Shown here one piece after another: positions 2 through 54,957 of a DNA stretch of 64,000 nucleotides; position 1 is the first letter of the stretch, and each line of letters begins with the position of its first letter. Source of the stretch: Anaerolineae bacterium (GTDB lineage: Bacteria > Chloroflexota > Anaerolineae > S140-20); contig JALUTT010000145.1 of the NCBI GenBank assembly GCA_027021705.1, positions 827 to 64,826 of the forward strand. The letters run 5' to 3'. A program made the translations under genes and the position numbers. The notes beneath the pieces are model-generated. The model saw only the letters and a list, made by a program, of their open reading frames with translations. It did no database searches and was not told the origin of the DNA.

Positions 2-253
2 AAGGTCTGGGCGCGGGAGCTGGGCCGGTACAACATCCGCGTCAACGCCGTGGCCCCCGGCTTCACCCTCACCGCGATGGTCCGCCAGATGCCGGAGAAG
101 GTCCTGGAGCGGATGCGTGCCCGTATCCCCCTGGGCCGGCTGGCCGATCCCCGCGACATCGCCAACGCCTACCTCTTTCTCGCTTCCGACGAAGCCGCCT
201 ACATCAGCGGCGCGGTCCTGCGGGTGGACGGGGGGATTGTGGTGGGGACGTGA
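2..253 (+). CDS. Short-chain dehydrogenase/reductase, classical SDR, C-terminal fragment (N-terminus lies upstream of the window)
   Basis: Open frame from position 2, reading KVWARELGRYNIRVNAVAPGF...ISGAVLRVDGG, the typical classical SDR C-terminus (FabG-like). Stop TGA at 251-253. Confidence 0.8.
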   Translation, partial: KVWARELGRYNIRVNAVAPGFTLTAMVRQMPEKVLERMRARIPLGRLADPRDIANAYLFLASDEAAYISGAVLRVDGGIVVGT

Positions 254-334
254 GACGTGAGACGTGAGACGTGAAACGTGAGACGTGAGACGTGAGACGT
301 GAAACGTGAAACGTGAGACGTGATGCGTGATACG
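247..334. repeat. Tandem heptanucleotide array (GACGTGA/AACGTGA), about 12 copies; the first unit contains the SDR stop codon
   Basis: Direct read: gacgtga gacgtga gacgtga aacgtga ... tgcgtga tacg. Period is exactly 7. Confidence 0.95.
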
Positions 335-384
335 TCCTGCATCTTGCCTCCTGCCCCCTGTATCTTTGCACAAGTGAGAGAACA

Positions 385-2918: not shown

Positions 2919-3911
2919 ATGCGCCACGCACAAATCCTTTCCACCGGCAGCTACGTCCCCGAGCGGGTGGTGACCAACGCCGAGATGGACCGGATCCTGG
3001 GGGAGCCCACCGACGAGTGGCTGGTCGAGAACGTCGGCATTCGGGAGCGGCGGTGGATGAGCCCCGACCAGACCACCTCCGACCTGGCCGTGGAGGCCTC
3101 CCGCCGGGCGCTGGAGCGGGCGGGGATCGGACCGGAGGCGTTGGACCTGATCATCCTCTCCACCGACACTCCCGACTACCTCTCTCCCTCCACCTCCGTG
3201 GTGGTGCAGCACAAGCTGGGGGCGGTCAACGCCGGCTGCTGGGACGTCAACAGCGCCTGTGCCGGATGGGTCACCGCCCTCGACCAGGGAGCCCGCTACA
3301 TCGCCACCGAGCCCTCCCTCCGCTACGTCCTGGTCGCCGGGGCCTACGGGATGAGCCGCTTCCTCGACCTGACCGACAAGCGGACGGCCAACCTCTTTGC
3401 CGACGGGGCGGGGGCCGTGGTGCTGGGGCCGGGTGAGGAACCGGGGTTTCTGGCCAGCAACTTCCTGGCCCGGGGCGAGTTCCACGACGCCCTGGGCATC
3501 TACACCGGTGGGGCCTTCCGCCCCTGCACGCCGGAGAACTTGGAGCGGTACGGCCCGCCGCGCGTCCAGTTCGTCCGCAAGTTCCCCAAGACCTTCAACA
3601 CCGAGTACTGGCCCCGGCTGATCCGGGGGGCGCTGGACAAGGCCGGGCTGACCGTGGACGACGTGGACCTCTTCCTGTTCACCCAACTGAACCTGCGGAC
3701 CATCGAGCTGATGATGGACCTCCTCGGTCAGCCGATCTCCAAGACCCACTGGGTGATGGACAAGTGGGGCTACACCGGCTCCCCCTGCGTGGCGATGGCC
3801 CTGGATGACGCCATCGCCCAGGGCCGTGGCCCCAACCCCGGCGACGTCATCGTCTTCTGCACCAGTGGCGGCGGGATCACGATGGCGGCGTCGGTCTGGC
3901 GGTGGGTGTGA
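2919..3911 (+). CDS. FabH-like 3-oxoacyl-ACP synthase III family condensing enzyme (KAS III / OleA-like thiolase fold)
   Basis: 330 aa. N-terminus ILSTGSYVPERVVTNAEMDRIL. Active-site Cys context NSACAGWVTAL. C-terminal GDVIVFCTSGGGITMAA. Ribosome-binding site GGGAG upstream. Confidence 0.88.
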   Translation: MRHAQILSTGSYVPERVVTNAEMDRILGEPTDEWLVENVGIRERRWMSPDQTTSDLAVEASRRALERAGIGPEALDLIILSTDTPDYLSPSTSVVVQHKLGAVNAGCWDVNSACAGWVTALDQGARYIATEPSLRYVLVAGAYGMSRFLDLTDKRTANLFADGAGAVVLGPGEEPGFLASNFLARGEFHDALGIYTGGAFRPCTPENLERYGPPRVQFVRKFPKTFNTEYWPRLIRGALDKAGLTVDDVDLFLFTQLNLRTIELMMDLLGQPISKTHWVMDKWGYTGSPCVAMALDDAIAQGRGPNPGDVIVFCTSGGGITMAASVWRWV

Positions 3912-3960
3912 CGGAGGACGCAGGGCGCAAGATGCAAGATGCAGGGAGCAAGAGGCAATG
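3908..3960. repeat. Degenerate tandem heptamer array (GCARGRN) spanning the KAS III stop and the next start codon
   Basis: tgacgga ggacgca gggcgca agatgca agatgca gggagca agaggca ATG. Confidence 0.7.
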
Positions 3961-5502
3961 TACGTAGGCGACTATCTCGGCCGGCGGGCGATCTACAGCC
4001 CCGATAGGCTTGCGATCGTGGACGCGGGGAAGGAGCCGGAGTGGCGGCTGACCTACCGGCAGATGAACGAGCGGGCCAATCGGTTCGCCAACTGGCTGCG
4101 GGGCGTGGCAGGCATCGGGAAGGGGGACCGGGTGGCGATCCTGGCCCGCGACGGCGTGGAGCACCTGGACTGCTTCTTCGCCTGCTCCAAGCTGGGGGCC
4201 ATCCACACCGCCCTCAACTGGCGGCTCCACTGGCGGGAGCTGGCGGAGATCGTTCGGAAGACCACCCCCACCGTCCTCATCTACTCCGACGACTTCAGAG
4301 AGAAGGTGGCCCGGCTACACAACGCCACGCGGAACACGGAACACGCCATACGCCATTACCTCCACGTCGAAGGCGAGGGCATCGAGGGCAGCCTCCCCTT
4401 CGAGACCACCCTTCAGGGGAGCCCCGCCGATCCGGTCACCTGTGAGACGGTCGAGGCCGAGGAGATCGTCGCCCTCATCTTCACCGGCGGCACCACCGGC
4501 TTCCCCAAGGCGGCCCAGGTCTCCCACCGGATGATCGCCTGGAACACGCTGAACACCGTCATCCACGACCTGACCCACGACGACATCTACCTCAACGTCT
4601 TCCCTCTGTTCCACACCGGCGGCCTCTTCGTCTACACCCTGCCCCAGGTCATCCTGGGCGGGACCACCATCCTGATCCGCCAGTTCGACCCGGAGCGGGT
4701 GCTGAGGCTCATCGAGCAGGAGCGGGTCACCGTCTTCGCCGGCGTGCCGACGATGTACCAGATGCTCACCCAGGCGGCGAACTGGGAGGAAGCCGATCTC
4801 TCGTCGCTCCGCTTCTGCACCAGCGGCGGCGCTCCCCTGCCGGTTCCCCTGGTGGAGCAGTACACCCGCGAGAAGGGGGTGCGCTTCAAGCAGGGCTTCG
4901 GGATGACCGAGTTCGGTCCGGGCATCTTCGCCCTGGCCCCCGAGGACGCGGTCCGCAAGGCCGGTTCCATCGGTCGCCCCAACTTCTACGTGGACGCGCG
5001 GGTGGTGGACGACGACAACAACCCGCTGGGCTCCAACCAGGTGGGGGAGCTGGTGCTCAAGGGGCCTTCCCTCTGCTCCGGCTACTTCGGCGATCCCCAG
5101 GCCACCGCCGGGATGCTGGACGAAGCGGGGTGGTTCCACACCGGTGACCTGGCCCGCTACGATGAGGAGTGGTACTTCTACATCGTGGACCGCAAGAAGG
5201 ATATGTTCATCTCCGGCGGGGAGAACGTCTACCCGGTGGAGATCGAAAAGGCCCTGTACGAGCATCCCGCCGTCCACATGTGCGCCGTCATCGGCGTGCC
5301 CGACCCCAAGTGGGGGGAGGTGGGGCTTGCCTGCGTGGTCCTCAAGCCGGGGGCCACTGCCACCGAGGAGGAACTGATCGCTTTCCTGCGGGACCGGCTG
5401 GCCCGCTACAAGGTGCCCAAGCGGGTGGTGTTTATGGACCGCCTCCCCATCTCCGGCGCGGGCAAGATCCTGAAGCGGGAACTGCGGGAGTGGTTCGCGT
5501 AA
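3958..5502 (+). CDS. AMP-dependent acyl-CoA synthetase/ligase, paralogue 2
   Basis: The track ORF starts at 3805, overlapping the upstream gene. The start was trimmed to the ATG at 3958 (MYVGDYLGRRAIYSPDRLAIVD, parallel to the N-terminus of paralogue 1). AMP-binding motif FTGGTTGFPKA. Confidence 0.88.
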   Translation: MYVGDYLGRRAIYSPDRLAIVDAGKEPEWRLTYRQMNERANRFANWLRGVAGIGKGDRVAILARDGVEHLDCFFACSKLGAIHTALNWRLHWRELAEIVRKTTPTVLIYSDDFREKVARLHNATRNTEHAIRHYLHVEGEGIEGSLPFETTLQGSPADPVTCETVEAEEIVALIFTGGTTGFPKAAQVSHRMIAWNTLNTVIHDLTHDDIYLNVFPLFHTGGLFVYTLPQVILGGTTILIRQFDPERVLRLIEQERVTVFAGVPTMYQMLTQAANWEEADLSSLRFCTSGGAPLPVPLVEQYTREKGVRFKQGFGMTEFGPGIFALAPEDAVRKAGSIGRPNFYVDARVVDDDNNPLGSNQVGELVLKGPSLCSGYFGDPQATAGMLDEAGWFHTGDLARYDEEWYFYIVDRKKDMFISGGENVYPVEIEKALYEHPAVHMCAVIGVPDPKWGEVGLACVVLKPGATATEEELIAFLRDRLARYKVPKRVVFMDRLPISGAGKILKRELREWFA

Positions 5503-5549
5503 CGGAATACGCAACACGCAATACGTGAAACGTCAAACGTCAAGCGTCT
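5496..5549. repeat. Degenerate tandem heptamer array after the ligase stop
   Basis: gcgtaac ggaatac gcaacac gcaatac gtgaaac gtcaaac gtcaagc gtc. Confidence 0.75.
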
Positions 5550-19181: not shown

Positions 19182-19285
19182 CAATTCGCAACTTGCAACT
19201 TGCAACTTGCAACTTGCAATCTGCAACCTGCAACTTGCAACCTGCAACTTGTAACTTGCACCTTGCACCTTGCACCTTGCAACTT
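19182..19285. repeat. Tandem heptanucleotide array (CAACTTG, with CAACCTG/CACCTTG variants), about 15 copies, in the pckA 5' leader
   Basis: caacttg x4, caatctg, caacctg, caacttg ... caccttg x3. Confidence 0.95.
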
Positions 19286-20285: not shown

Positions 20286-20420
20286 GCTCGGGGAAGATGA
20301 TGTGGGCTCATTTTACTCGAATCTGCCCCGGATGCAAATCACCCGTTGGGGCAGGGTGACCGGTGATGCTCCCGTTTTTATGGGTTGGTGTTGAAAAGCT
20401 CCGTTGGTGTGGCAAATTGG

Positions 20421-20449
20421 TTGACGCGCAAAACCAGGTGTGCTATAAT
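20421..20449 (+). promoter_or_regulatory. Near-consensus sigma-70-type promoter (TTGACG-17-TATAAT) driving a roughly 420-nt C-rich leader of rho
   Basis: TTGACG at 20421-20426, 17-nt spacer, TATAAT at 20444-20449. Confidence 0.6.
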
Positions 20450-20872
20450 TGGGGCAACATTGCCTCAGCTTATACGATCATCGCAGGCATTCCAGGTGGG
20501 AGCCTGTATGTGCCTCGTTTGACGAAGCACCTCCCCTCAACGACCCAAGAGCTCTCCTAAATGGTACAATCCTGAGAAGCCATCATTGCATATCTCGTCT
20601 CAACCTCTGCCAAGGGGAAGACGAAACGTTTCGTCCGACGTGGACTGATCTCCCCACGGTCGGCTTCTTATGCCTGACCGGCTTGGGCTCCCGTCCTGGA
20701 TCTCACCTGGACAACAGCCCCAGGATGTAGGCAGATCCCGTTGGAAGTGGAATTGCCCTCCGGAAGGAACCCTCCTGAACGCCTGGAAGGCCCTGGGTCC
20801 CTCTGGGAGGTCCTGCTATGGGCACACCCCCTGCTGTGAATCCCCGGGGGAAAACCGATTTTCTGATCAGGA

Positions 20873-22168
20873 GTGAATGCCGTGGACCTAGATATTGCTG
20901 AACTGGAAACGCGCACGTTGCACGAATTGCGAGAGCTGGCCCGAGAAATGGGGGTATCGGGCTACAGCCGCTTGAAGAAAGACGAACTCATCCTCCGCCT
21001 TTTGCGGGCCAAGGCGGAACAACAGGGCCTCATCTTTGGAGGCGGTATCCTGGACATCGTGGATGAGGGGGTGGGGTTCCTCCGTTCCGATCACTACCTG
21101 CCCGGCCCCGAGGATGTCTACGTCTCCCAGTCGCAGATCCGGCGCTTCGGCCTGCGCACGGGCGATATGGTCGTCGGCCAGGTTCGCCCTCCCAAGGAGA
21201 ACGAGAAATACTACAGCCTGCTCCGTGTGGAGGCGGTGAACGGCCTGGATCCAGAGCAGGCCAAGTATCGCCCCCATTTCGATCGGCTGACCCCCATCTT
21301 CCCCAACGAACTCCTGGACTTGGAGACGGACTCCAACAACCTGACCACCCGGTTGCTCAACCTGATCGCCCCCATCGGTCGGGGACAGCGTGGTCTGATC
21401 GTTTCCCCCCCCAAGGCGGGCAAGACCACCGTCCTGAAGCACATCGCCAACGCCGTCTCGGCCCGCTATCGGGACATCCACCTGATGGTCTGCCTCATCG
21501 GAGAGCGGCCCGAGGAGGTGACCGATATGGATCGTTCCGTGGAGGCGGAGGTGATCAGTTCCACCTTTGACGACCCGGTCGAGAACCACGCCCGGGTGGC
21601 TGAGATGGCTCTGGAGCGGGCCAAGCGGTTGGTGGAGTGTGGCCGCCACGTGATGATCCTCCTGGACTCGATCACCCGCCTCTCCCGGGCCTACAACCTG
21701 ATCGTCCCCCCCAGTGGGCGTACACTTTCAGGAGGTCTGGACCCGGCAGCCCTCTATCCTCCCAAGCGTTTCTTCGGATCGGCCCGCAACATCGAGGAGG
21801 GAGGGAGCCTGACCATCATTGCCACCTGCCTGGTGGACACGGGCAGCCGGATGGACGATATGATTTACGAGGAGTTCAAGGGGACGGGCAACATGGAGCT
21901 CCACCTGAGTCGGCGGCTGCAAGAGCGCCGTATCTTCCCCGCCTTCGACATCGAGCGCTCTGGCACGCGCCGGGAGGACCTGCTCCTGGACCCGGATACA
22001 TTGGCCAAGGTGTGGACGATGCGGCGGATGTTCACCCAGTTGACCACGCCGCCGCCTTCGGGGGCCGGCTACGACATCGCGACGGCCACGGAGGCCCTGC
22101 TGAACCGGCTGCGGCGCACCAAGACCAACAAGGAGTTTCTCGACACACTGCACAAGGATGCGCTGTAG
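20873..22168 (+). CDS. rho: Transcription termination factor Rho
   Basis: 431 aa. N-terminal RNA-binding domain. RecA-like ATPase with [23 protein letters not shown] start after ribosome-binding site CAGGAG. Confidence 0.95.
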
Positions 22169-29917: not shown

Positions 29918-32021
29918 GGTCGGGGAAGCGGTGGAGGAGAGGAGCCTGGCCCAGCCCATCCCAGACGCCCGCATCCTGGTCGTCGAGGATCACGTGGGAA
30001 CGGCCAAGCTGATCAGCCGTCTGCTGGAGAGGGCGGGGTATACCGCCCTGGAGTTCCACAGCGGTGAGGAGGCCCTGGACTTCGTCCAGGCCGTGGCGGC
30101 TGGTCAGGAGCCCCCCATTGATATGGCGATCCTGGATGTGATGATGCCCGGCGTGGACGGCTTCCAGGTCTGCGAGCGGATCCGCCAAACGGATCTGCCC
30201 GGCTACGTGCCGGTGCTGATGCTCACCGCGCTCACCTCGATCCGGGACAAAGTGAAGGGGCTGGACCTGGGAGCCGATGACTACCTGACCAAGCCCTTTA
30301 ACCACCAGGAGCTCCTGGCTCGGGTGCGGGCAGGGCTGCGGGTTCGCCAGGCAGAACAGGCCCTCTACCAGCGCAACCGACAACTGGCAGTCCTCCACCG
30401 GATCACCCAGGCGGTCAACTCCAGCCTGGAACTGGACGATGTGCTGACCATCGCGATGGAGGGGATTCAAGAACTCCTCCACGTCGAAGGGGGGTCTCTG
30501 CTCCTCGCCGACGACAAGCGGCAGACACTGACCTTCGTCCGCGCCTTGAGCCGGAATCGTGTCTCGGTGCTCAACCACACCATCGCCATCGGCGAGGGCC
30601 TCGTCGGCCAGGTGATCCGGGAGGGGCGGTCCATCTTGCTCAACGATCTTCAACAAGACCCTCAGTGGGAGGACTGTTTCAACCGGATTCTGGGGCTCAC
30701 CGCCCGGAACCTCCTCTGCGTTCCCCTGCAAGTCCGGGAGCAGGTCATCGGGGCCATTGGGGTGGTCAACAAGTGGGATGGTCCCTTCACCCCGGAGGAT
30801 CAGGGGATCCTGGAGTTGATGGCGGCTTCGGTGGCGACGGCCACGGAGAACGCCCGCCTCTTCTACGAGTTGGCCTCGGCCTACGCCGGTCTGGAGAGCA
30901 GCCGACAAGCGATTATCGAGCACCGCAACCGGCTCCAAGCTCTCTTCGACGGCATCTCTGACCGTATCTACGTGATAGATGTCAACTATCGCCTGCAAGC
31001 GGTCAACGCTGCTCAGGCTCGATGGTTGGGCAAGAAGCACGACTCACCACTGGAGGGCCTTTGCTACGCTATCCTCTACGGACGCAGGATCCCTTGTGAG
31101 GGATGTCAAGTGATGGCGGCCTTCACCCACCGCACAGTCCAGAGCTGGTCGGAGCGCCGCCGCCGGCCCGATGGACGCCGGGAGGAGTGGGAGATCAATG
31201 CCTACCCGGTCCTCAATCGGGGCGGGGAGGTGGAGCAGGCGATCCTCTTTGTCCGCGATGTGACCAAACAGCGAATGCTGGAGGCCTCGTTGCACCAGTC
31301 GGAGAAGCTGGCCGCGCTGGGCCAACTGGCTGCCGGCCTGGCCCACGAGATCAATAATCCCCTCACCGCCATCCTGGCCAACACCCAGCTCCTCCTGCTG
31401 GATACACCTCCCGAAGACCCCGCCTACGAGTCCTTGGACCTGATCCTGCGGGCCAGTGAACGGGCCATCCGGGTGGTGCGCAACCTATTGGACTTTGCCC
31501 GGCAAGAGGCTTACGATTTCGAGCCGGTAGACCTGAATCAGACGATCCGCAATGCCCTGGACCTGGTGCGCCATCAGTTCGACCTAGCCGGCATCGAGGT
31601 CATCTGCGACCTGGCTCCGGGCCTGCCCCCCGCCTACGCTAGCCGTGATCACCTGCAGAGCGTCTGGCTGAACCTTCTCCTGAACGCCCGGGATGCCCTC
31701 CTGGAGGCCGCTGAGAAGCCTCAGCGCTGGGTGCGGATCACCACATCCATCGAAGCCGACTGGTTGCAGGTCCAGGTGATGGACAATGGTGTGGGCATCC
31801 CGGAGCCCCACCTGAGCCGCATCTTCGAGCCCTTTTTCACCACCAAGGCCCCCGGCAAAGGGACCGGTCTGGGCCTCTCCACCTCTTATCAGATCATCCA
31901 GCAGCACCAGGGCCAGATCCTTGTGGACAGTGACCCGGATCAGGGGACGACTTTCACGGTGCTTCTACCGACCGCCAGCCGCAGACCGCCGACCAGGCGG
32001 CCAAGCGGCCAAGCGGCCTAG
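29892..32021 (+). CDS. Hybrid sensor histidine kinase with N-terminal receiver, GAF and PAS domains (REC-GAF-PAS-HisKA-HATPase_c)
   Basis: ILVVEDHV...[11 protein letters not shown] receiver. H-box [11 protein letters not shown]. HATPase G-boxes. Start uncertain (29892 ATG overlaps the regulator gene by 26 nt). The 3' end is encoded by a short tandem-repeat tract. Confidence 0.8.
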
Positions 32022-32116
32022 CGACCTAGCGACTCGGCGGCGAACTGAGGACCGGGGACTGAGGACCGAGGACTACCTGGCCAAGCGACCATCCGACCAA
32101 AGCGAGGAGTGAGACG

Positions 32117-39524: not shown

Positions 39525-39636
39525 GACCGCCATCGGTCGCTGAGGGGCCGGGAGATTCAAAGACATCTCGCGCACAGCCCTGGGCTACACCCAGGGCTGT
39601 GGTTTTTCCTGTGTCAGCCGTCAACGAATGTCCAAC

Positions 39637-40177
39637 GAGTGTGACCAAAATGGGTTGGAGGCGGTAGAAGCGCAACGCCCCTGCATCTTTCCCCCAACAG
39701 CCTCCGATCACGCTCGGTCCAAAAGCCCCCGGAATCACTGAAGCACTGAGGGAAGTGAAGACACTGAGCCGTCGTCTCCCATCCGTTCAATCCGTTCCCC
39801 AATCCGTTGACAGCTCGTCCGCTCCGGCCACGGCGAGAGACACAAAGGGCACCAAGAGCTCAAAGGGCACGAAGCGGTGCGAAAGGCTGGACAAGCCCTC
39901 TTGGGAGCACCACCCCCCCATCCGTTCCAAATCCGTTCAATCCGTTCCCAATCCGTTGACAGCTATCCGTTCCCCAATCCGTTGACAGCTTGTCCGTCCG
40001 CCAACCAAGCCCTCAGAATCACTGACGCACTGAGGGAGGTGAAGACACCGAGCCTTGGGCAGTGCGGCCCAGGTCGTCGGCAAGGCCGTGACCCGACGCC
40101 GGGGAGGGAGTGCATCACTCCTCAGTGAGCTCATTTCTCTCAGCGCTTCAGTGGTTCAACAGCTTTTGGTCACGCTC
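39637..40177. mobile_element. Complex MITE-like element, copy 1 (541 bp), with about 15-bp terminal inverted repeats (GAGTGTGACCAAAA / TTTTGGTCACGCTC), an internal AATCCGTT/TTGACAGCT-rich tandem unit, and a 9-bp direct repeat (ATGTCCAAC / ATATCCAAC)
   Basis: Direct repeats at 39628-39636 and 40178-40186. Same family as 53890-54780. Confidence 0.75.
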
Positions 40178-40357
40178 ATATCCAACGAATAAGCGAATGC
40201 GAATGGATGGTGTTGACGAGGCTCCGGCTTTGCGTTACACTTGGGGTGGTCGGTTGTCGGGGCTCCCTGCTGGTCTGCCGTCCACCGGGCCACCGAATGG
40301 CGAACCCGGCGGGAGCAGAGAGGTGGGAGCGGACACGCGCGATGAGAACAAGGAGGC

Positions 40358-45500: not shown

Positions 45501-46018
45501 CGCGTTCCTCCGGGGTTGTGGGTGATCGCTGTCCAGCGGTCGCCGGCCCGCGTCCACTCTTGGCGGTGGCCGAGGCCGGCCCGGTTGTCAATCCAACGCA
45601 GCCAATGCGGGGTGATGCGGTATAGGGCTGCCTGGGAGAGGGCGCGGAACAGGGCGGGGTCGGTGAGGACGAAGGGGAACTTGGCCGTGTAGCGGACCCA
45701 AGCCCTGGTCCGCTCCCCGCCGGTGACCCGGTGGCAGAGGCCCTCCATTTGGAGGCCCCGGATCTCCCGCCAGTGGGCCGAGGTGGCGTGGATGGTGACG
45801 GCCACCCGGGGGTCCCGGGCCACGTTGGCCGCGTGGCGGCTGTCGGTTGCCGAGACGAAGTAGAGGATCAGGTCGTCGGTCTCGGCGTAGTAGAGGTCGG
45901 CGGCCTGGGGTTCTCCGTCAGGACCGACGGTGGCGAGGGTGAGGGTGGTGTGGTCGGCCAGGAAGGCCCGAATCTGGGCGGGGAGGGGGTGGGTCACCGG
46001 TCTGCCAGTCCTTTCCAC
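45497..46018 (-). CDS. Pyridoxamine 5'-phosphate oxidase-like FMN-binding family protein
   Basis: About 150-aa PNPOx-like domain (LTLATVGPDGEPQAADLYY...). Start is approximate: GTG 46018 or GTG 45997, with no in-frame ATG. Confidence 0.5.
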   Translation of the reverse strand: MERTGRPVTHPLPAQIRAFLADHTTLTLATVGPDGEPQAADLYYAETDDLILYFVSATDSRHAANVARDPRVAVTIHATSAHWREIRGLQMEGLCHRVTGGERTRAWVRYTAKFPFVLTDPALFRALSQAALYRITPHWLRWIDNRAGLGHRQEWTRAGDRWTAITHNPGGTR

Positions 46019-46575
46019 GGGGTGAAAAGGTGGTTCTCGATTCCCAGGCGGGCCAGGATGCGGCCCACGGTCTGGTCCACCAGCGCCTCTACGGATGGGG
46101 GGCGGGCGTAGAAGGCGGGGACGGGGGGGAAGATGATGGCGCCCAGTTCGGCGGCCTGGACCATCAGCCGCAGGTGGCCCAGGTGCAGAGGGGCTTCGCG
46201 CACGACGAGGAGCAGTGGCCGGCCCTCTTTGAGGGTGACGTCGGCGGCGCGGGTGAGGAGGTCGGCGGCGTAGCTGTGGGCGATGGCGCTGAGGGTCTTG
46301 ATGCTGCACGGGATGACGACCATGCCGTCGGTGGGGAAGGAGCCGCTGGCGATGGCGGCCCCGATGTCGTGGGGTTTGTAGACGACGTCGGCCAGGGCCT
46401 CGATAGCGTGCAGCGGGCGGTCGGTCTCGCTGCGAAGGGTGATGCGAGCAGCCGGGCTGATGATCAGGTGGGTCTCGACGGTGCTGTCTTGGGCTAAGGC
46501 ATCCAGCAGCCGGACGGCGAGGATGGCGCCGCTGGCCCCGGAGATGCCGACGATCAGCCGTTTGGGTGAGGACAT
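45994..46575 (-). CDS. ubiX: UbiX-family flavin prenyltransferase
   Basis: GISGASGA flavoprotein motif. 193 aa. Confidence 0.9.
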   Translation of the reverse strand: MSSPKRLIVGISGASGAILAVRLLDALAQDSTVETHLIISPAARITLRSETDRPLHAIEALADVVYKPHDIGAAIASGSFPTDGMVVIPCSIKTLSAIAHSYAADLLTRAADVTLKEGRPLLLVVREAPLHLGHLRLMVQAAELGAIIFPPVPAFYARPPSVEALVDQTVGRILARLGIENHLFTPWKGLADR

Positions 46576-46596
46576 TAATGTTCCTCGGCGTCCAAG

Positions 46597-46650
46597 GTAG
46601 TCGGGTGGTCGGGTGGTCGCTTGGTCAGGTGGTCAGGTGCTCGTTTGCTC
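46597..46650. repeat. Heptamer-periodic array (GGTCRNN), the inverted counterpart of the array at 48020-48110
   Basis: gtcgggtggtcgggtggtcgcttggtcaggtggtcagg is the reverse complement of cctgaccacctgaccaagcgaccacccgac at the other border. Confidence 0.8.
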
Positions 46651-46684
46651 AGATAGCGTCGGAATGTGAAACCTGATTACCTCC

Positions 46685-46912
46685 TCATAGCAACTCCAGA
46701 AAATCCTCCACACTCAATCGTGCCTGTTTCAAGATGTGTGCTAATGTGGAACGCTTGACAGGACGGTGCGCCGGGACAACGATCTTGAGCACCTCATCTC
46801 CCACACGCTTCTGTAACCGAATATGACTCCCCCGTTGGCGTACCACGGTCCAACCATCCCTTTGCAGGGCACGAATGATGCGGTAGTATGGCAAGCTGGG
46901 CACTTTGCTCAC
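46685..46912 (-). CDS. hicA: HicA-family mRNA-interferase toxin
   Basis: 75 aa. ...GWTVVRQRGSHIRLQK... matches the HicA core (GW..vr.kGSH). Confidence 0.75.
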   Translation of the reverse strand: MSKVPSLPYYRIIRALQRDGWTVVRQRGSHIRLQKRVGDEVLKIVVPAHRPVKRSTLAHILKQARLSVEDFLELL

Positions 46913-47118
46913 AGCTCGACCTCCTGCACTACCGCACTCTCCCGCAGCAGCGGGATCAAATCATCTTCCACTGGTTCTAGATACAGCTCGATCGCTTCTT
47001 GAATATTTTTCAAAGCTTCCTCTACCGTCTCTCCCTCGCTGATGCAACCGGGCAGAGAAGGAACATATACGGTATATCCACCCTCCTCACTGGGTTCAAG
47101 CACTACTTTGAAGCGCAT
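46909..47118 (-). CDS. hicB: HicB-family antitoxin (UPF0150-like)
   Basis: 69 aa. YTVYVPSLPGCISEGETVEEALKNIQEAIELYLE matches the HicB N-domain. 4-nt overlap (ATGA) with hicA. Confidence 0.75.
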   Translation of the reverse strand: MRFKVVLEPSEEGGYTVYVPSLPGCISEGETVEEALKNIQEAIELYLEPVEDDLIPLLRESAVVQEVEL

Positions 47119-47226
47119 TGCGACCTCCCCTTGACCGAATTATCTTCAGCATAGTAAGACACTGCAGGCTTCAGTGCTACTACTGCCTGCCACAACCCCT
47201 CACGGGAATCCTTGCATCCGAGTGGC

Positions 47227-47571
47227 TTACCGACGGTTTTGGATGATGATCTCAGAGAGTAGACGGTTCAGATCGTTCAGCTTTGTCTGGAGAGCTTGCC
47301 TTCGTTCTTCGGGCAACTCACGCCAGCGCCGGGCGCGGGCACGCATCTCGGGAGTAGGTCGAGCGATGGGCATACCGTGGGCCTCGAGCCAGGCGATGAG
47401 TTCGTCGCGGGTGGGCTCCCGCCCTTCGAGCAGCCAGATGGGGGGCTCGGCGACCGGGGAAGGTTCCTCTCGCCCCCGTCGCAGCTCGGCCACCGTCCGC
47501 TCTAGGACTTGTACTCGCGCTTCTAGTTCTTCCAGCCTTTCTTTTACTGAGAGGGAGGGTTGATGATCCAA
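47227..47571 (-). CDS. Hypothetical coiled-coil small protein
   Basis: 114 aa. The N-terminal heptad ERLEELEARVQVLERTVAELRR is shared with the neighbouring small protein. Confidence 0.45.
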   Translation of the reverse strand: MDHQPSLSVKERLEELEARVQVLERTVAELRRGREEPSPVAEPPIWLLEGREPTRDELIAWLEAHGMPIARPTPEMRARARRWRELPEERRQALQTKLNDLNRLLSEIIIQNRR

Positions 47572-47711
47572 TGGCGTTCTAGTCCTTGTACTCTGTCGAA
47601 ATCTGTGTCGTCAGATGCGATAGCTGTCAGACCCAGGCGTTGGATGATTGCCATATGCAGCGCATCGCGCGGGAGTAGTTAGTATCCACATATACCGAGC
47701 CGCTATGCACT

Positions 47712-48008
47712 TCATCGAGCTTCATAGAGGCCACCGATTTTCAGGGAGAAATCATAGTCTGCGGCTTTCTCTTGCCCTAGGCATCCGGCCAATTCGTCCA
47801 GTATCTCTTCGGGCTGGGGAGCCTCCATAGGGAGAATGCGGATTTCGCCCGCTTCAATGACGATTCGCACTTGCTTGCCCAAGCCGGCTGCTTGTAGAGT
47901 CTCCTGGTTGATGATCAGATTCCCTGGGTGGCTTACTTGTTTCAGTTCCGCTACGGTTTGCTCCAACCGGCGGACGCGCTTCTCCAGCTCTTCCAGTGTT
48001 GTTGCCAT
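47712..48008 (-). CDS. Small protein with N-terminal coiled coil and an AbrB/MazE/SpoVT-like swapped-hairpin domain (putative antitoxin or transition-state-regulator-like)
   Basis: Start ATG 48008 after ribosome-binding site GGAGGAGAG. ...GKQVRIVIEAGEIRILP... pattern. The long ORF in the track is over-extended. Confidence 0.55.
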   Translation of the reverse strand: MATTLEELEKRVRRLEQTVAELKQVSHPGNLIINQETLQAAGLGKQVRIVIEAGEIRILPMEAPQPEEILDELAGCLGQEKAADYDFSLKIGGLYEAR

Positions 48009-48019
48009 CGTCTCTCCTC

Positions 48020-48110
48020 CGCTGACCGCCGACCGCCGACCATTCGACCAGGCGACCACCTGACCACTCGACCAAGCGACCACCTGACCACCCGACCAAA
48101 TTATAACCGC
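48020..48110. repeat. Heptamer-periodic array (CGACCRN), the inverted partner of the array at 46597-46650
   Basis: cgaccgc cgaccgc cgaccat tcgacca ggcgacc acctgac cactcga ccaagcg accacct gaccacc cgaccaa. Confidence 0.8.
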
Positions 48111-48124
48111 CCTTCTTCCCCCCG

Positions 48125-48865
48125 TCAATCGGCCTGACGCCAGGGGCAGAGCCGGCGGTCGAGGCCGTCTACGACGAAGTAGAGGGTCAGGCCCAGCAGG
48201 CTCATCGCCAGCACGCCGGCGTACATCTGGGCGTAGCGCAACGCCCCCCAGCTCTCGACGATGATGTAGTAGCCCAACCCGGAGGTCGTGGCGTAGGTCT
48301 CGGCGATGAAGAGGACGGCGATGGCGGTCCCCACGCTGACCCGCAGGGCGGTGAGGACGGCCGGCAGGGAGGCCGGCAGGTAGACGTACCGGAAGAGCGC
48401 CCGCCGCCCCGCGCCCAGGGAGCGCACGGAGAGGATGAGCTCCGGGCGCAGGCCGGCCGCCTCGTCGCGCACGACGACGAGGATCTGGAAGAAGAGGATC
48501 AAGGCGATGAGGAAGACCTTGCTCCCGTTGCCGGATCCGAGGAGGACGAGGATGACGGGCAGGAAGACGATCTTGGGGATGGGGTGCACGATGTAGATCA
48601 GAGGCGAGAAGAGGCGGTCGAGGGTGCGGATCTGGCCTAGCCCCAGCCCCGCCGGCACGGCGACCAGGACGGCCAGGACGATGGCGGCCACGACCCGCCC
48701 GGCGCTGACCAGCAGGTGTCGGCCCAGGTCGCCCGGGAGCTGGCGGGCGAAGACGAGGAGCACCACCGTCGGCGGCGGGAAGACGGGCCGGGCGATGAGC
48801 AGGGAGAGCAGTTCCCACAGGATCAAGGTGGCGACGAACCCCAGAGCCGCATCACGCCAGCGCAT
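48125..48865 (-). CDS. ABC transporter permease, NitT/TauT family
   Basis: 246 aa, six transmembrane segments, SsuC-like. Confidence 0.82.
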   Translation of the reverse strand: MRWRDAALGFVATLILWELLSLLIARPVFPPPTVVLLVFARQLPGDLGRHLLVSAGRVVAAIVLAVLVAVPAGLGLGQIRTLDRLFSPLIYIVHPIPKIVFLPVILVLLGSGNGSKVFLIALILFFQILVVVRDEAAGLRPELILSVRSLGAGRRALFRYVYLPASLPAVLTALRVSVGTAIAVLFIAETYATTSGLGYYIIVESWGALRYAQMYAGVLAMSLLGLTLYFVVDGLDRRLCPWRQAD

Positions 48866-51990: not shown

Positions 51991-52287
51991 TTATCCGCCG
52001 ATTGCCTGCACGGCTGAGTACTGAGGCACGGCCAGGTAGCGCTCAGGGCGGTGGCGGTGGTATTCGCTCAGGAACTGGTCCAGTTTCTCCGAGATGTTCG
52101 CTGAGATATATGCCTCCCCACATTGCTCGCAGACATCGGCCGGGACATCGCGGATGATGATGAGGTCTTCCCCGCGCCAAATTTCCAGTGTCGTCGTTCC
52201 GGGCCCTAGTTCTCCTCCACAAAGGTCGCAGCGATCCAGGTGTTCGTTCATTTTTGCACCTTCCGTGTCTTGTAATCGCTTTCCCAT
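51991..52287 (-). CDS. YgiT/MqsA-type zinc-ribbon small protein
   Basis: CDLCGG ... CEQCGE four-Cys ribbon. About 90 aa. Confidence 0.55.
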   Translation of the reverse strand: MGKRLQDTEGAKMNEHLDRCDLCGGELGPGTTTLEIWRGEDLIIIRDVPADVCEQCGEAYISANISEKLDQFLSEYHRHRPERYLAVPQYSAVQAIGG

Positions 52288-53867: not shown

Positions 53868-53889
53868 GCAAGTACCTCTGATTTCAAAC

Positions 53890-54780
53890 GAGTGTGACCA
53901 AAATGGGTTGGAGGCGGTAGAAGCGCAACGCCCCTGCATCTTTACCCCAGCAGCTTCCGGTCACGCTCGGTTCAAAAGCCCCCGGAATCACTGACGCACT
54001 GAGGGAAGTGAAGACACTGAACCGTCATCCCCCATCCGTTCAATCCGTTCCCCAATCCGTTGACAGCTCGTCCGCTCCGGCCACGGCGGGAGACACGAAG
54101 GACACCAAGAGCTCAAAGAGCACGAAGCGGTGCGAAGGTCTGGACAAGCCCTCTTGGGGGCACCACCCCCCCATCCGTTCCCAATCCGTTCAATCCGTTC
54201 CCAATCCGTTGACAGCTATCCGTTCCCCAATCCGTTGACAGCTCGTCCGCTCCGGCCACGGCGGGAGACACGAAGGACACCAAGAGCTCAAAGAGCACGA
54301 AGCGGTGCGAAGGTCTGGACAAACCCTCTTGGGGGCACCACCCCCCCATCCGTTCCCAATCCGTTCAATCCGTTCCCAATCCGTTGACAGCTATCCGTTC
54401 CCCAATCCGTTGACAGCTCGTCCGCTCCGGCCACGGCGGGAGACACGAAGGACACCAAGAGCTCAAAGAGCACGAAGCGGTGCGAAGGTCTGGACAAACC
54501 CTCTTGGGAGCACCAACCCCCCATCCGCTCCAAATCCGTTCAATCCGTTCCCAATCCGTTGACAGCTATCCGTTCCCCAATCCGTTGACAGCTTGTCCGT
54601 CCGCCAACCAAGCCCTCAGAATCACTGACGCACTGAGGGAGATGAAGACACTGAGCCTTGTGCAGGGCGGCCCAGGTCGTCGGCAAGGCCGTGACCCGAC
54701 GGTGGGGAGGGGGCACACAACCCCTCAGTGAGCTCATTTCTTTCAGTTGCTCAGTGATTCAACGGCTTTTGGTCACGCTC
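53890..54780. mobile_element. Complex MITE-like element, copy 2 (891 bp), with the same terminal inverted repeats as 39637-40177, about 3.5 internal ~175-bp tandem units, and a perfect 9-bp target-site duplication ATTTCAAAC
   Basis: ATTTCAAAC at 53881-53889 and 54781-54789. Terminal repeats gagtgtgaccaaaa / ttttggtcacgctc. Each internal unit has three TTGACAGCT and multiple ATCCGTT. Confidence 0.8.
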
Positions 54781-54957
54781 ATTTCAAACTTCCTCACGAC
54801 AGCGCTTGCCGTCTTGTCATCTGCGCAAAATGTCTCAAAATCCATTCCCTCTACAAATGTCTCGATGCTCTCCATGGCGGCTAGGATGTCCTTCAGGTAC
54901 AATCGGTAGTCTCTCATATCGGTACGACCTCCGACAGTACCCCCAAACCGTCCTTTG

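Follow-up and report, generated by a model that had tools for sequence, protein, structure and literature searches.

How does a toxin-antitoxin (TA) islet come to lie within a housekeeping transcription unit, and what are the inverted arrays of short repeats that stand at its two edges? We address this question for a locus on a 64,000-nt stretch of contig JALUTT010000145.1 (assembly GCA_027021705.1) from an Anaerolineae bacterium of the Chloroflexota; this whole stretch is the window, and all positions are those of the stretch. The islet (46596-48128) separates an ABC transporter permease gene from ubiX and carries a hicB-hicA pair together with two further small open reading frames (ORFs), ORF3 and ORF4. 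A preliminary description of the window read it as an inserted cassette that may have been delivered by recombination at the arrays. We propose instead that it is probably a chromosomal type II TA islet in the leader of ubiX, reshuffled and decaying, and that the arrays are by-products or hot spots of rearrangement, not the ends of a mobile element.

Relatives without the islet place it in the leader of ubiX

The minus strand carries every gene at the locus, and the order of transcription is permease, ORF4, ORF3, hicB, hicA, ubiX. Both housekeeping flanks were assigned as before: the upstream permease gene (48125-48865, minus strand) matches PF00528 (3.4e-20), and the downstream flavin prenyltransferase gene ubiX (45994-46575, minus strand), which is now the last gene behind the islet, matches NF004685 (6.5e-79). 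The closest relatives of UbiD, which come from Thermoflexus and Anaerolineae metagenome-assembled genomes, are at most 73% identical. Between the flanks, the GC content of the segment 46600-48100 is 0.51-0.61, as against 0.69-0.70 in the flanks and 66% in the window as a whole.

The site is empty in eight relatives whose permease orthologues are 75-91% identical to that of the window (L054, L091, L092, L093, L094, L095, L096, and L098). Specifically, the permease adjoins ubiX at a spacing of 2-20 nt in all of these but L092, and in L092 (permease 87% identical) only a promoter and a 32-nt leader separate the two genes, the permease stop being followed by TTGACG-17 nt-TATAAT, the leader, and then ATGAGTCCATCCAAACG, the ubiX start. 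The preliminary description had suggested that the adjacency of ubiX to the ABC genes be checked in related genomes, and its view of the islet as an inserted TA segment is confirmed by this comparison.

The same sigma-70-type promoter, which had been missed before, is predicted in the window at 48100-48128 (minus strand), with 11 of 12 consensus matches and with the permease stop codon falling within its -35 hexamer. It is the sole promoter-like site within 45900-48400, it is conserved in a sister lineage (L171-L173), and a scan of the same interval found no terminator-like site between it and ubiX. Since L092, without the islet, has this promoter directly before the ubiX leader, the promoter appears to be the ancestral ubiX promoter and to be older than the islet. 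Since L092 keeps both the promoter and the 32-nt leader, the comparison further indicates that the islet is an insertion in the ubiX leader, just past the -10 box and before the ubiX ribosome-binding-site region.

We also considered whether the site is a general hot spot for TA genes and rejected this, because the permease-ubiX gap of more distant relatives holds UbiE/MenG-like, DinB-like, and Mop-like genes and no TA genes. Elsewhere in the window, a solitary gene for a 98-aa YgiT-type zinc-finger, MqsA-like antitoxin (51991-52287, minus strand; TIGR03831, 5e-16) is wedged between an ABC permease gene and ubiD; its GC content is low (0.57), and it has no flanking arrays.

One predicted intact TA pair and two antitoxin-like orphans

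As previously described, hicB (46909-47118, minus strand; 69 aa; PF15919 1.9e-13, PF21748 6.9e-07) and hicA (46685-46912, minus strand; 75 aa; PF07927 1.1e-15) overlap by 4 nt (46909-46912). HicA scores 57.9 bits against PF07927 (cut-off 27) over residues 11-65 and contains RGSHIRL, which we take to be the conserved Gly-Ser-His region of HicA toxins. Many HicB proteins, though not all, carry a ribbon-helix-helix (RHH) or helix-turn-helix (HTH) DNA-binding domain for autoregulation. The 69-aa HicB has the HicB_lk/UPF0150 domain only, with the HicB_lk match covering residues 3-53, and the Pfam search found no RHH or HTH domain on it. On domain content and gene order, hicBA is predicted to be a genuine TA pair and the only intact one in this strain. 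HicA of this type is unusually conserved across the Chloroflexota, with 4772 relatives, many of them 85-95% identical. In Thermoflexus spp. (L174-L183, e.g., L174 2795-3228), hicB-hicA lies directly after groES (Cpn10) with a protein identity of 89-91%, no arrays are present, and a hairpin follows.

The product of ORF4 (47712-48008, minus strand; 98 aa) is a VapB-like antitoxin in which an N-terminal coiled coil is combined with a putative AbrB/MazE-like domain and a conserved tail (LDELAGCLGQE..YDF.LKIGGLYEAR). It has 69 homologues, none with a Pfam domain; most are ~80 aa long and have no N-terminal coiled coil, and in those with a readable context (L083-L085) a PIN gene follows directly downstream. 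Regarding the AbrB/MazE-like domain named in the preliminary description, ORF4 itself has no Pfam match (ORF3 likewise matches no Pfam or NCBIfam family), and a profile search of the ORF4 family against PDB sequences returned nothing relevant. When the family was compared with Pfam, PF04014 was found at 5e-5 in 2 of 33 members and PF14250 at 2e-4 in one of the 33. An AlphaFold2 model (pLDDT, predicted local distance difference test, of 67) has a helix-strand-strand topology, and its best Foldseek matches are MazE, VapB, and AbrB, at a target TM-score of ~0.5 and all at a non-significant E of at least 1. As such, the three family members and the model make the fold a plausible but weak assignment for ORF4.

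Between ORF4 and ORF3 lies a vapC (PIN) pseudogene that had escaped notice (47544-47725, minus strand). The 140-nt gap between the two ORFs, when translated, contains both ends of a PIN-domain gene in different frames, and tblastn with the intact 170-aa PIN protein of L086 places residues 1-24 at 47725-47666 and residues 121-170 at 47696-47547; codons ~1-17 are therefore fused out of frame to codons ~121-170. Five sibling assemblies from other samples (L086-L090), in which the islet is 99% nucleotide-identical and the arrays are identical, carry the gene intact (170 aa; PF01850 4.6e-12), and there it shares 14 nt with the end of ORF4 and 28 nt with the start of ORF3. Relative to these siblings, the lesion is a clean, frameshifting 331-bp deletion with its junction near 47678 and no microhomology beyond 1 nt. 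Given this loss, ORF4 would be an antitoxin whose toxin is dead, and the position directly downstream of the antitoxin, held by a functional PIN toxin gene in VapBC systems, is taken in the window by the pseudogene.

ORF3 (47227-47571, minus strand; 114 aa) belongs to a rare unannotated family with just three close homologues, two of them in L171-L173, and with 17 representatives among 1.84 billion proteins. In L171-L173, a 159-aa PIN gene begins 3-12 nt after the ORF3 homologue; tblastn finds no copy of this PIN gene in the window, and ORF3 thus appears to be an antitoxin orphaned in the window, its PIN partner gone. Because each of the two coiled-coil ORFs precedes a PIN gene in relatives, the comparison supports an antitoxin-like role for both. 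Their common N-terminal motif, already noted in the preliminary description, reads LEELExRVxxLExTVAEL, and 14 of its positions (residues 13-30) are invariant across five proteins, namely ORF3, ORF4, and three homologues. A recent duplication of the coiled-coil coding segment, with ORF4 as a chimera made by insertion into ORF3, was considered and rejected, since the in-register nucleotide identity is 56% and the third codon positions differ (27% identity).

The ubiX-side array as a late inverted duplicate

The promoter-side array (48019-48099, minus strand) consists, as read on the transcribed strand, of ~8 units of TGGTCRNN followed by three units of GGTCGGC; it lies in the predicted 5' leader, beginning right after the -10 box and extending into the ORF4 ribosome-binding site (GGAGGAG). 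The ubiX-side array (46596-46652, minus strand) repeats the first ~51 nt of the promoter-side array in register and in inverted orientation. It occupies the joint between the hicBA module, which ends 23 nt past the hicA stop, and ~38 nt of alignable sequence before ubiX; homology stops at a CGACCA motif. The best inverted pair joins 46600-46650 with 48046-48096 over 51 nt at 86% complementarity, so that the earlier report of inverted arrays at both flanks is sustained, and the arms match exactly over 15 nt at most. One arm starts 4 nt past the -10 box and the other ends 24 nt before the ubiX ATG. The pattern GGTCRNNNGGTCRNNNGGTCR (GGTCRN3GGTCRN3GGTCR) has eight matches in the window, all at the two flanks, where none is expected by chance.

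The heptamer period given in the preliminary description has to be corrected. Tandem Repeats Finder reports a period of 8 nt at 48037-48098 (7.8 copies), with a stronger super-period of 24 nt (3.0 copies, 89%), and again a period of 8 nt at 46596-46643 (6.0 copies), whereas a 7-nt unit is confined to 48019-48041 (3.3 copies). Aligned in register and unit by unit, the two arrays read TAGTCGGG / TGGTCGGG, TGGTCGGG / TGGTCAGG, and TGGTCGCT / TGGTCGCT in the first three pairs and TGGTCAGG / TGGTCGAG, TGGTCAGG / TGGTCAGG, and TGCTCGTT / TGGTCGCC in the next three. Since the register is kept unit by unit, one array would be an inverted copy of the start of the other, rather than an independent expansion.

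The sister lineage L171-L173, whose flanks are 92-96% identical to those of the window species, allows this copy to be placed in time. It carries an islet at the same site in a different order, namely permease, promoter, a (TGGTCRGG)n array, a gene for a 204-aa membrane protein, hicB-hicA, the ORF3 homologue, the 159-aa PIN gene, and ubiX, with the PIN stop codon overlapping the ubiX ATG. The promoter-side array is present in this lineage and the ubiX-side array is absent. In addition, a GCT unit common to both window arrays is absent from the L171 array. Taken together, these two absences indicate that the inverted copy arose in the window lineage, and that the ubiX-side array is a late, lineage-specific inverted duplicate. 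The length of the promoter-side array differs by exactly one 8-nt unit between L172 and L173 and by another unit in L171; among the five siblings the unit number is unchanged, and the only array substitution (48035) lies outside the arms. We also rejected an ancestral spacer array split in two by the insertion, as the halves would be direct and not inverted, and the empty sites have no array.

The same comparison indicates that the islet was rearranged between the two lineages. The hicBA and ORF3 modules are only 83-88% identical, less than the flanks, and stand in reversed order, and the breakpoints around these internal modules are not at arrays. Downstream of the 204-aa gene, the sister lineage retains a relic consisting of the end of the array together with the ribosome-binding site of ORF4 and its first four codons. 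The ~38 nt that precede ubiX in the window can be aligned with the 3' end of the 159-aa PIN gene of the sister lineage and with the ubiX leader. The 204-aa protein, encoded by the first islet gene of the sister lineage (L171 1191-1805; L172 3225-3839), is Cys-rich (CxxC), has no Pfam match, and is unrelated to TA systems.

Mobile-element explanations

These results bear directly on the preliminary description, in which the inverted arrays serve as the terminal repeats of a mobile cassette or as recombination sites used for its delivery. Such a cassette would explain why arms resembling terminal inverted repeats lie exactly at the edges of the inserted DNA, why that DNA is low in GC, why the site is empty in relatives, and why homology between the two lineages ends at or just past the arrays. 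In this respect, the islet resembles MITEs (miniature inverted-repeat transposable elements) and insertion sequences, as a low-GC insert with 51-nt inverted repeats at its edges.

However, the sister lineage has its islet at the same site without the second array, and in the window this array holds a unit variant specific to the window lineage, so that it would have arisen after the insertion. No transposase or recombinase was found among the ORFs of 43.9-53.5 kb, and hence no transposase or integrase within ~4 kb of the islet; the outer flanks (..CCAAGGTA on one side and CAAATTATAA.. on the other) share no direct repeat, that is, no target-site duplication; and the 64-kb window holds no second copy, the array pattern occurring at the islet locus only. 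Unlike the elements above, the islet would thus be a single copy with one "terminal repeat" missing in the sister lineage and with arms built of tandem 8-mers. The internal breakpoints lie away from the arrays, the hicBA and the ORF4-PIN modules occur elsewhere without matching arrays, and arrays of this kind are generic fillers of spacers (see below). Altogether, we consider the arrays very improbable as cassette borders or delivery sites, and this part of the preliminary description is not upheld.

Related explanations fared similarly. Arrays intrinsic to the TA modules were rejected, given that the Thermoflexus hicBA has none and that the ORF4-PIN pair of L083 is accompanied by arrays of a different unit, which lie upstream and not downstream of its promoter. 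An integron cassette was rejected, as no tyrosine recombinase is present within ~4 kb and the module junctions have no common imperfect palindrome; a fixed promoter followed by variable content is the sole resemblance of the islet to an integron. Finally, an invertible segment, flipping between the inverted arrays and phase-varying the expression of the islet, would agree with inverted repeats that flank a 1.4-kb segment directly downstream of a promoter. We find this scarcely conceivable: the orientation is identical in all of the six independent assemblies, the neighbourhood contains no invertase gene, and the longest exact arm match of 15 nt is short for homologous recombination.

Separately from the islet, the window contains a dispersed MITE-like element at ~39632-40178 and ~53886-54786, with inverted ends GAGTGTGACCAAAATGGG ... 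CTTTTGGTCACGCTC and an interior of (CCAATCCGTT)n and TTGACAGCT motifs. The first copy has one instance of an internal 175-nt unit, of which the second has 3.2 tandem repeats (98% identical).

Short tandem arrays between co-directional genes of Anaerolineae

Arrays of 7-8 nt are present in seven other spacers of the window (247-335, 1906-2014, 2820-2903, 3910-3958, 5523-5548, 19188-19285, and 31980-32100), each located in the interval from a gene's stop codon to the ribosome-binding site of the co-directional gene that follows. Their locations are an acyl-CoA/fatty-acid operon, the spacer of two genes at 17.5-20.3 kb, and the region upstream of a tpiA-like gene, and the last of them (31980-32100) uses the same GACC unit as the islet arrays. 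In total, the 64 kb hold ~10 arrays in nine spacers, all between co-directional genes. The spacer arrays, whose neighbouring genes are housekeeping genes, reach 15.6 copies, and three consecutive ones in one operon have a CGTGA core.

Beyond the window, we counted 83 arrays of 7-8 nt in 31 loci (1.7 Mb of non-redundant Anaerolineae loci). Among neighbouring array pairs of the same period, 13 of 57 have a common unit at an identity of at least 85% (6 direct, 7 inverted; the extreme locus L083 is excluded from this count), against a between-locus background of ~4%. Together with the whole-unit length differences in the sister lineage, these counts indicate that the arrays are a generic spacer feature of the lineage and that they change length by slippage.

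Several loci illustrate how neighbouring arrays often have a common unit, direct or inverted (L016, L022, L048, L060, L083, and L116). In L060, the core genes for the ABC ATPase and permease, just upstream of ubiD, are enclosed by arrays in inverted orientation, (GTCTACC)n and (GGTAGAC)n. In L083, purine-rich (GAGGGGGA)n arrays alternate with their complement (CCCCCTCT)n at 448-500, 1477-1512, 1998-2066, 3412-3471, 3862-3945, and 4800-4900, around small genes that include a bAvd/23S-rRNA-IVP-like gene and the pair of an ORF4 homologue and a PIN gene; one CT-rich array there appears to extend into a glycosyltransferase coding region.

The short tandemly repeated repetitive (STRR) sequences of cyanobacteria are intergenic heptamer simple-sequence repeats. 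Intergenic heptamer arrays of unknown function have been described in Beggiatoaceae, cyanobacteria, Bacteroidetes, and Xanthomonas (PMC4679880, PMC4692102), including TAACTGA repeats in the first three groups (PMC4679880) as well as GGGAATC and GGGGAYT repeats in Xanthomonas and Nostoc and the heptanucleotides of Calothrix (PMC4692102). Our literature search found no description of such repeats in Chloroflexota (Anaerolineae, Thermoflexus-like). The Anaerolineae arrays are like these known repeats in that they are tandem 7-8-nt units in co-directional spacers, often reaching up to the ribosome-binding site, in that there are many per genome with whole-unit length changes between close strains, and in that they have no known function. 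Unlike them, each Anaerolineae genome uses many different units instead of one, and neighbouring arrays tend to have a common unit in either orientation.

Also in the window, a ~590-nt low-GC non-coding stretch (20286-20872) lies upstream of the gene at 20873-22168; it contains a promoter-like TTGACGCGC...TGCTATAAT and may be a long structured leader.

Possible RNA pairing and possible operator sites

Even if the arrays are generic, those at the islet could have been put to use. In one such explanation, the leader array, (UGGUCRNN)n in the transcript, pairs with the inverted copy upstream of the ubiX ribosome-binding site in a ~50-bp duplex that loops out the 1.4-kb islet, and cleavage by RNase III, or a change in stability or in the access of ribosomes, would make ubiX expression independent of the islet mRNA. 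The complementarity of the arms is consistent with this, as the predicted duplex has -95 kcal/mol as compared with -47 +/- 5 for shuffles. So are their positions, with one arm starting near the predicted transcript start and the other ending shortly before the ubiX start codon. In the sister lineage, which has no second array, ubiX overlaps the PIN stop, and this could be a different solution for the expression of ubiX.

There is also a precedent: in the hmw1 5' untranslated region of Haemophilus influenzae, a heptamer repeat pairs with a downstream region and the pairing is processed by RNase III (PMC12721329). The hmw1 leader is like the predicted islet transcript in having a transcribed short-period repeat right after the promoter and a complementary partner further along the transcript. 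It is unlike the islet in that the hmw1 repeat forms a local hairpin with a G-rich stretch close by, where the islet has an inverted copy 1.4 kb away.

On the other hand, most arrays in the window have no complementary partner, and all three in the acyl-CoA operon are in direct orientation. An even stronger pairing with the leader is predicted for the array at 31980-32100 (-122 kcal/mol), and the complementarity therefore follows from the common unit. Direct and inverted orientations are about equally common among neighbouring arrays that share a unit, and the arms are invariant in the five sibling assemblies and hence hold no covariation. A known RNA family in the islet was rejected as well, since an Rfam search of the islet gave only a chance snoRNA match (E=0.29). 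On balance, we regard the pairing of the two arrays as unlikely.

A broader form of this idea, which we rate as quite doubtful, is that 7-8-nt arrays are functional RNA or DNA punctuation in Anaerolineae, the duplex at this locus looping out the islet and freeing ubiX expression, and unit-sharing arrays marking an integrase-free exchange of modules. If this were true, ubiX would be expressed independently of the parasitic genes in its leader, and unit-sharing arrays would mark sites where modules downstream of an unchanging promoter are swapped with no dedicated integrase involved.

Alternatively, the arrays could be operators, with a DNA-binding antitoxin such as an AbrB-like ORF4 binding the 8-bp-periodic TGGTC sites just past the promoter and ahead of ubiX and autoregulating the islet. 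Repeated operator sites are bound by antitoxins of the AbrB/MazE type, and a promoter-side array that starts immediately past the -10 box would suit this role. Yet the sister lineage keeps the array with only a relic of the start of ORF4, arrays of unrelated units fill many spacers with no regulator nearby, and the same unit is also found upstream of the tpiA-like gene at ~32000. Given, in addition, the weakness of the DNA-binding fold assignment for ORF4, we judge an operator function to be highly improbable.

Discussion

The explanation that we favor starts from a pre-existing internal promoter of the ubiD-ubiA-ABC-ubiX operon, just past whose -10 box the islet would have lodged. Transcription from 48100-48128 would then run through the 8-nt repeat leader and the islet genes into ubiX. 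The islet would have been acquired by the ancestor of the two sister lineages and subsequently reshuffled module by module, with the arrays behaving as simple-sequence repeats that gain and lose units by slippage. The ubiX-side inverted duplicate would have been laid down at the rearrangement joint that put hicBA beside ubiX, so that we infer the arrays to be by-products or hot spots of rearrangement.

Four points weigh against this explanation. First, the window lineage has an array at each of the two transitions from conserved flank to variable content, and the arrays may therefore be active in rearrangement. Second, an inverted repeat of 51 nt at 86% could be functional rather than a scar. 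Third, the ~38 nt upstream of ubiX also align weakly with the ancestral leader of L092, and as this segment aligns both ways, the direction of some rearrangement steps is ambiguous. Fourth, the promoter, the read-through into ubiX, and the activity of hicBA are predictions made from the DNA itself.

Set beside known type II TA islets (HicAB, VapBC), the locus is typical in its HicA and HicB domains with a 4-nt overlap, in its PIN toxins encoded after small antitoxins, and in its low GC, patchy presence, shuffled modules, and decay that leaves orphan antitoxins and toxin pseudogenes. It differs in its location, within a housekeeping gene's leader and downstream of the promoter of that same gene. 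It differs further in its HicB without a DNA-binding domain, in the rare, unannotated ORF3 family, and in the N-terminal coiled coil that its two antitoxins share and that the ~80-aa members of the ORF4 family do not have.

TA islets that insert, shuffle, and decay are already well known. What this locus offers is a clean natural example of a selfish module behind a housekeeping promoter, for which the empty-site, sister-lineage, and sibling comparators allow the order of events to be reconstructed. It also carries a caution for annotation, namely that, where short tandem arrays are common and neighbours share units, an insert may be edged by inverted repeats that are not the termini of an element. 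The abundance of such 7-8-nt arrays between co-directional genes of Anaerolineae, with neighbouring arrays sharing their units, is the wider lead, and we find it more interesting than the islet itself.

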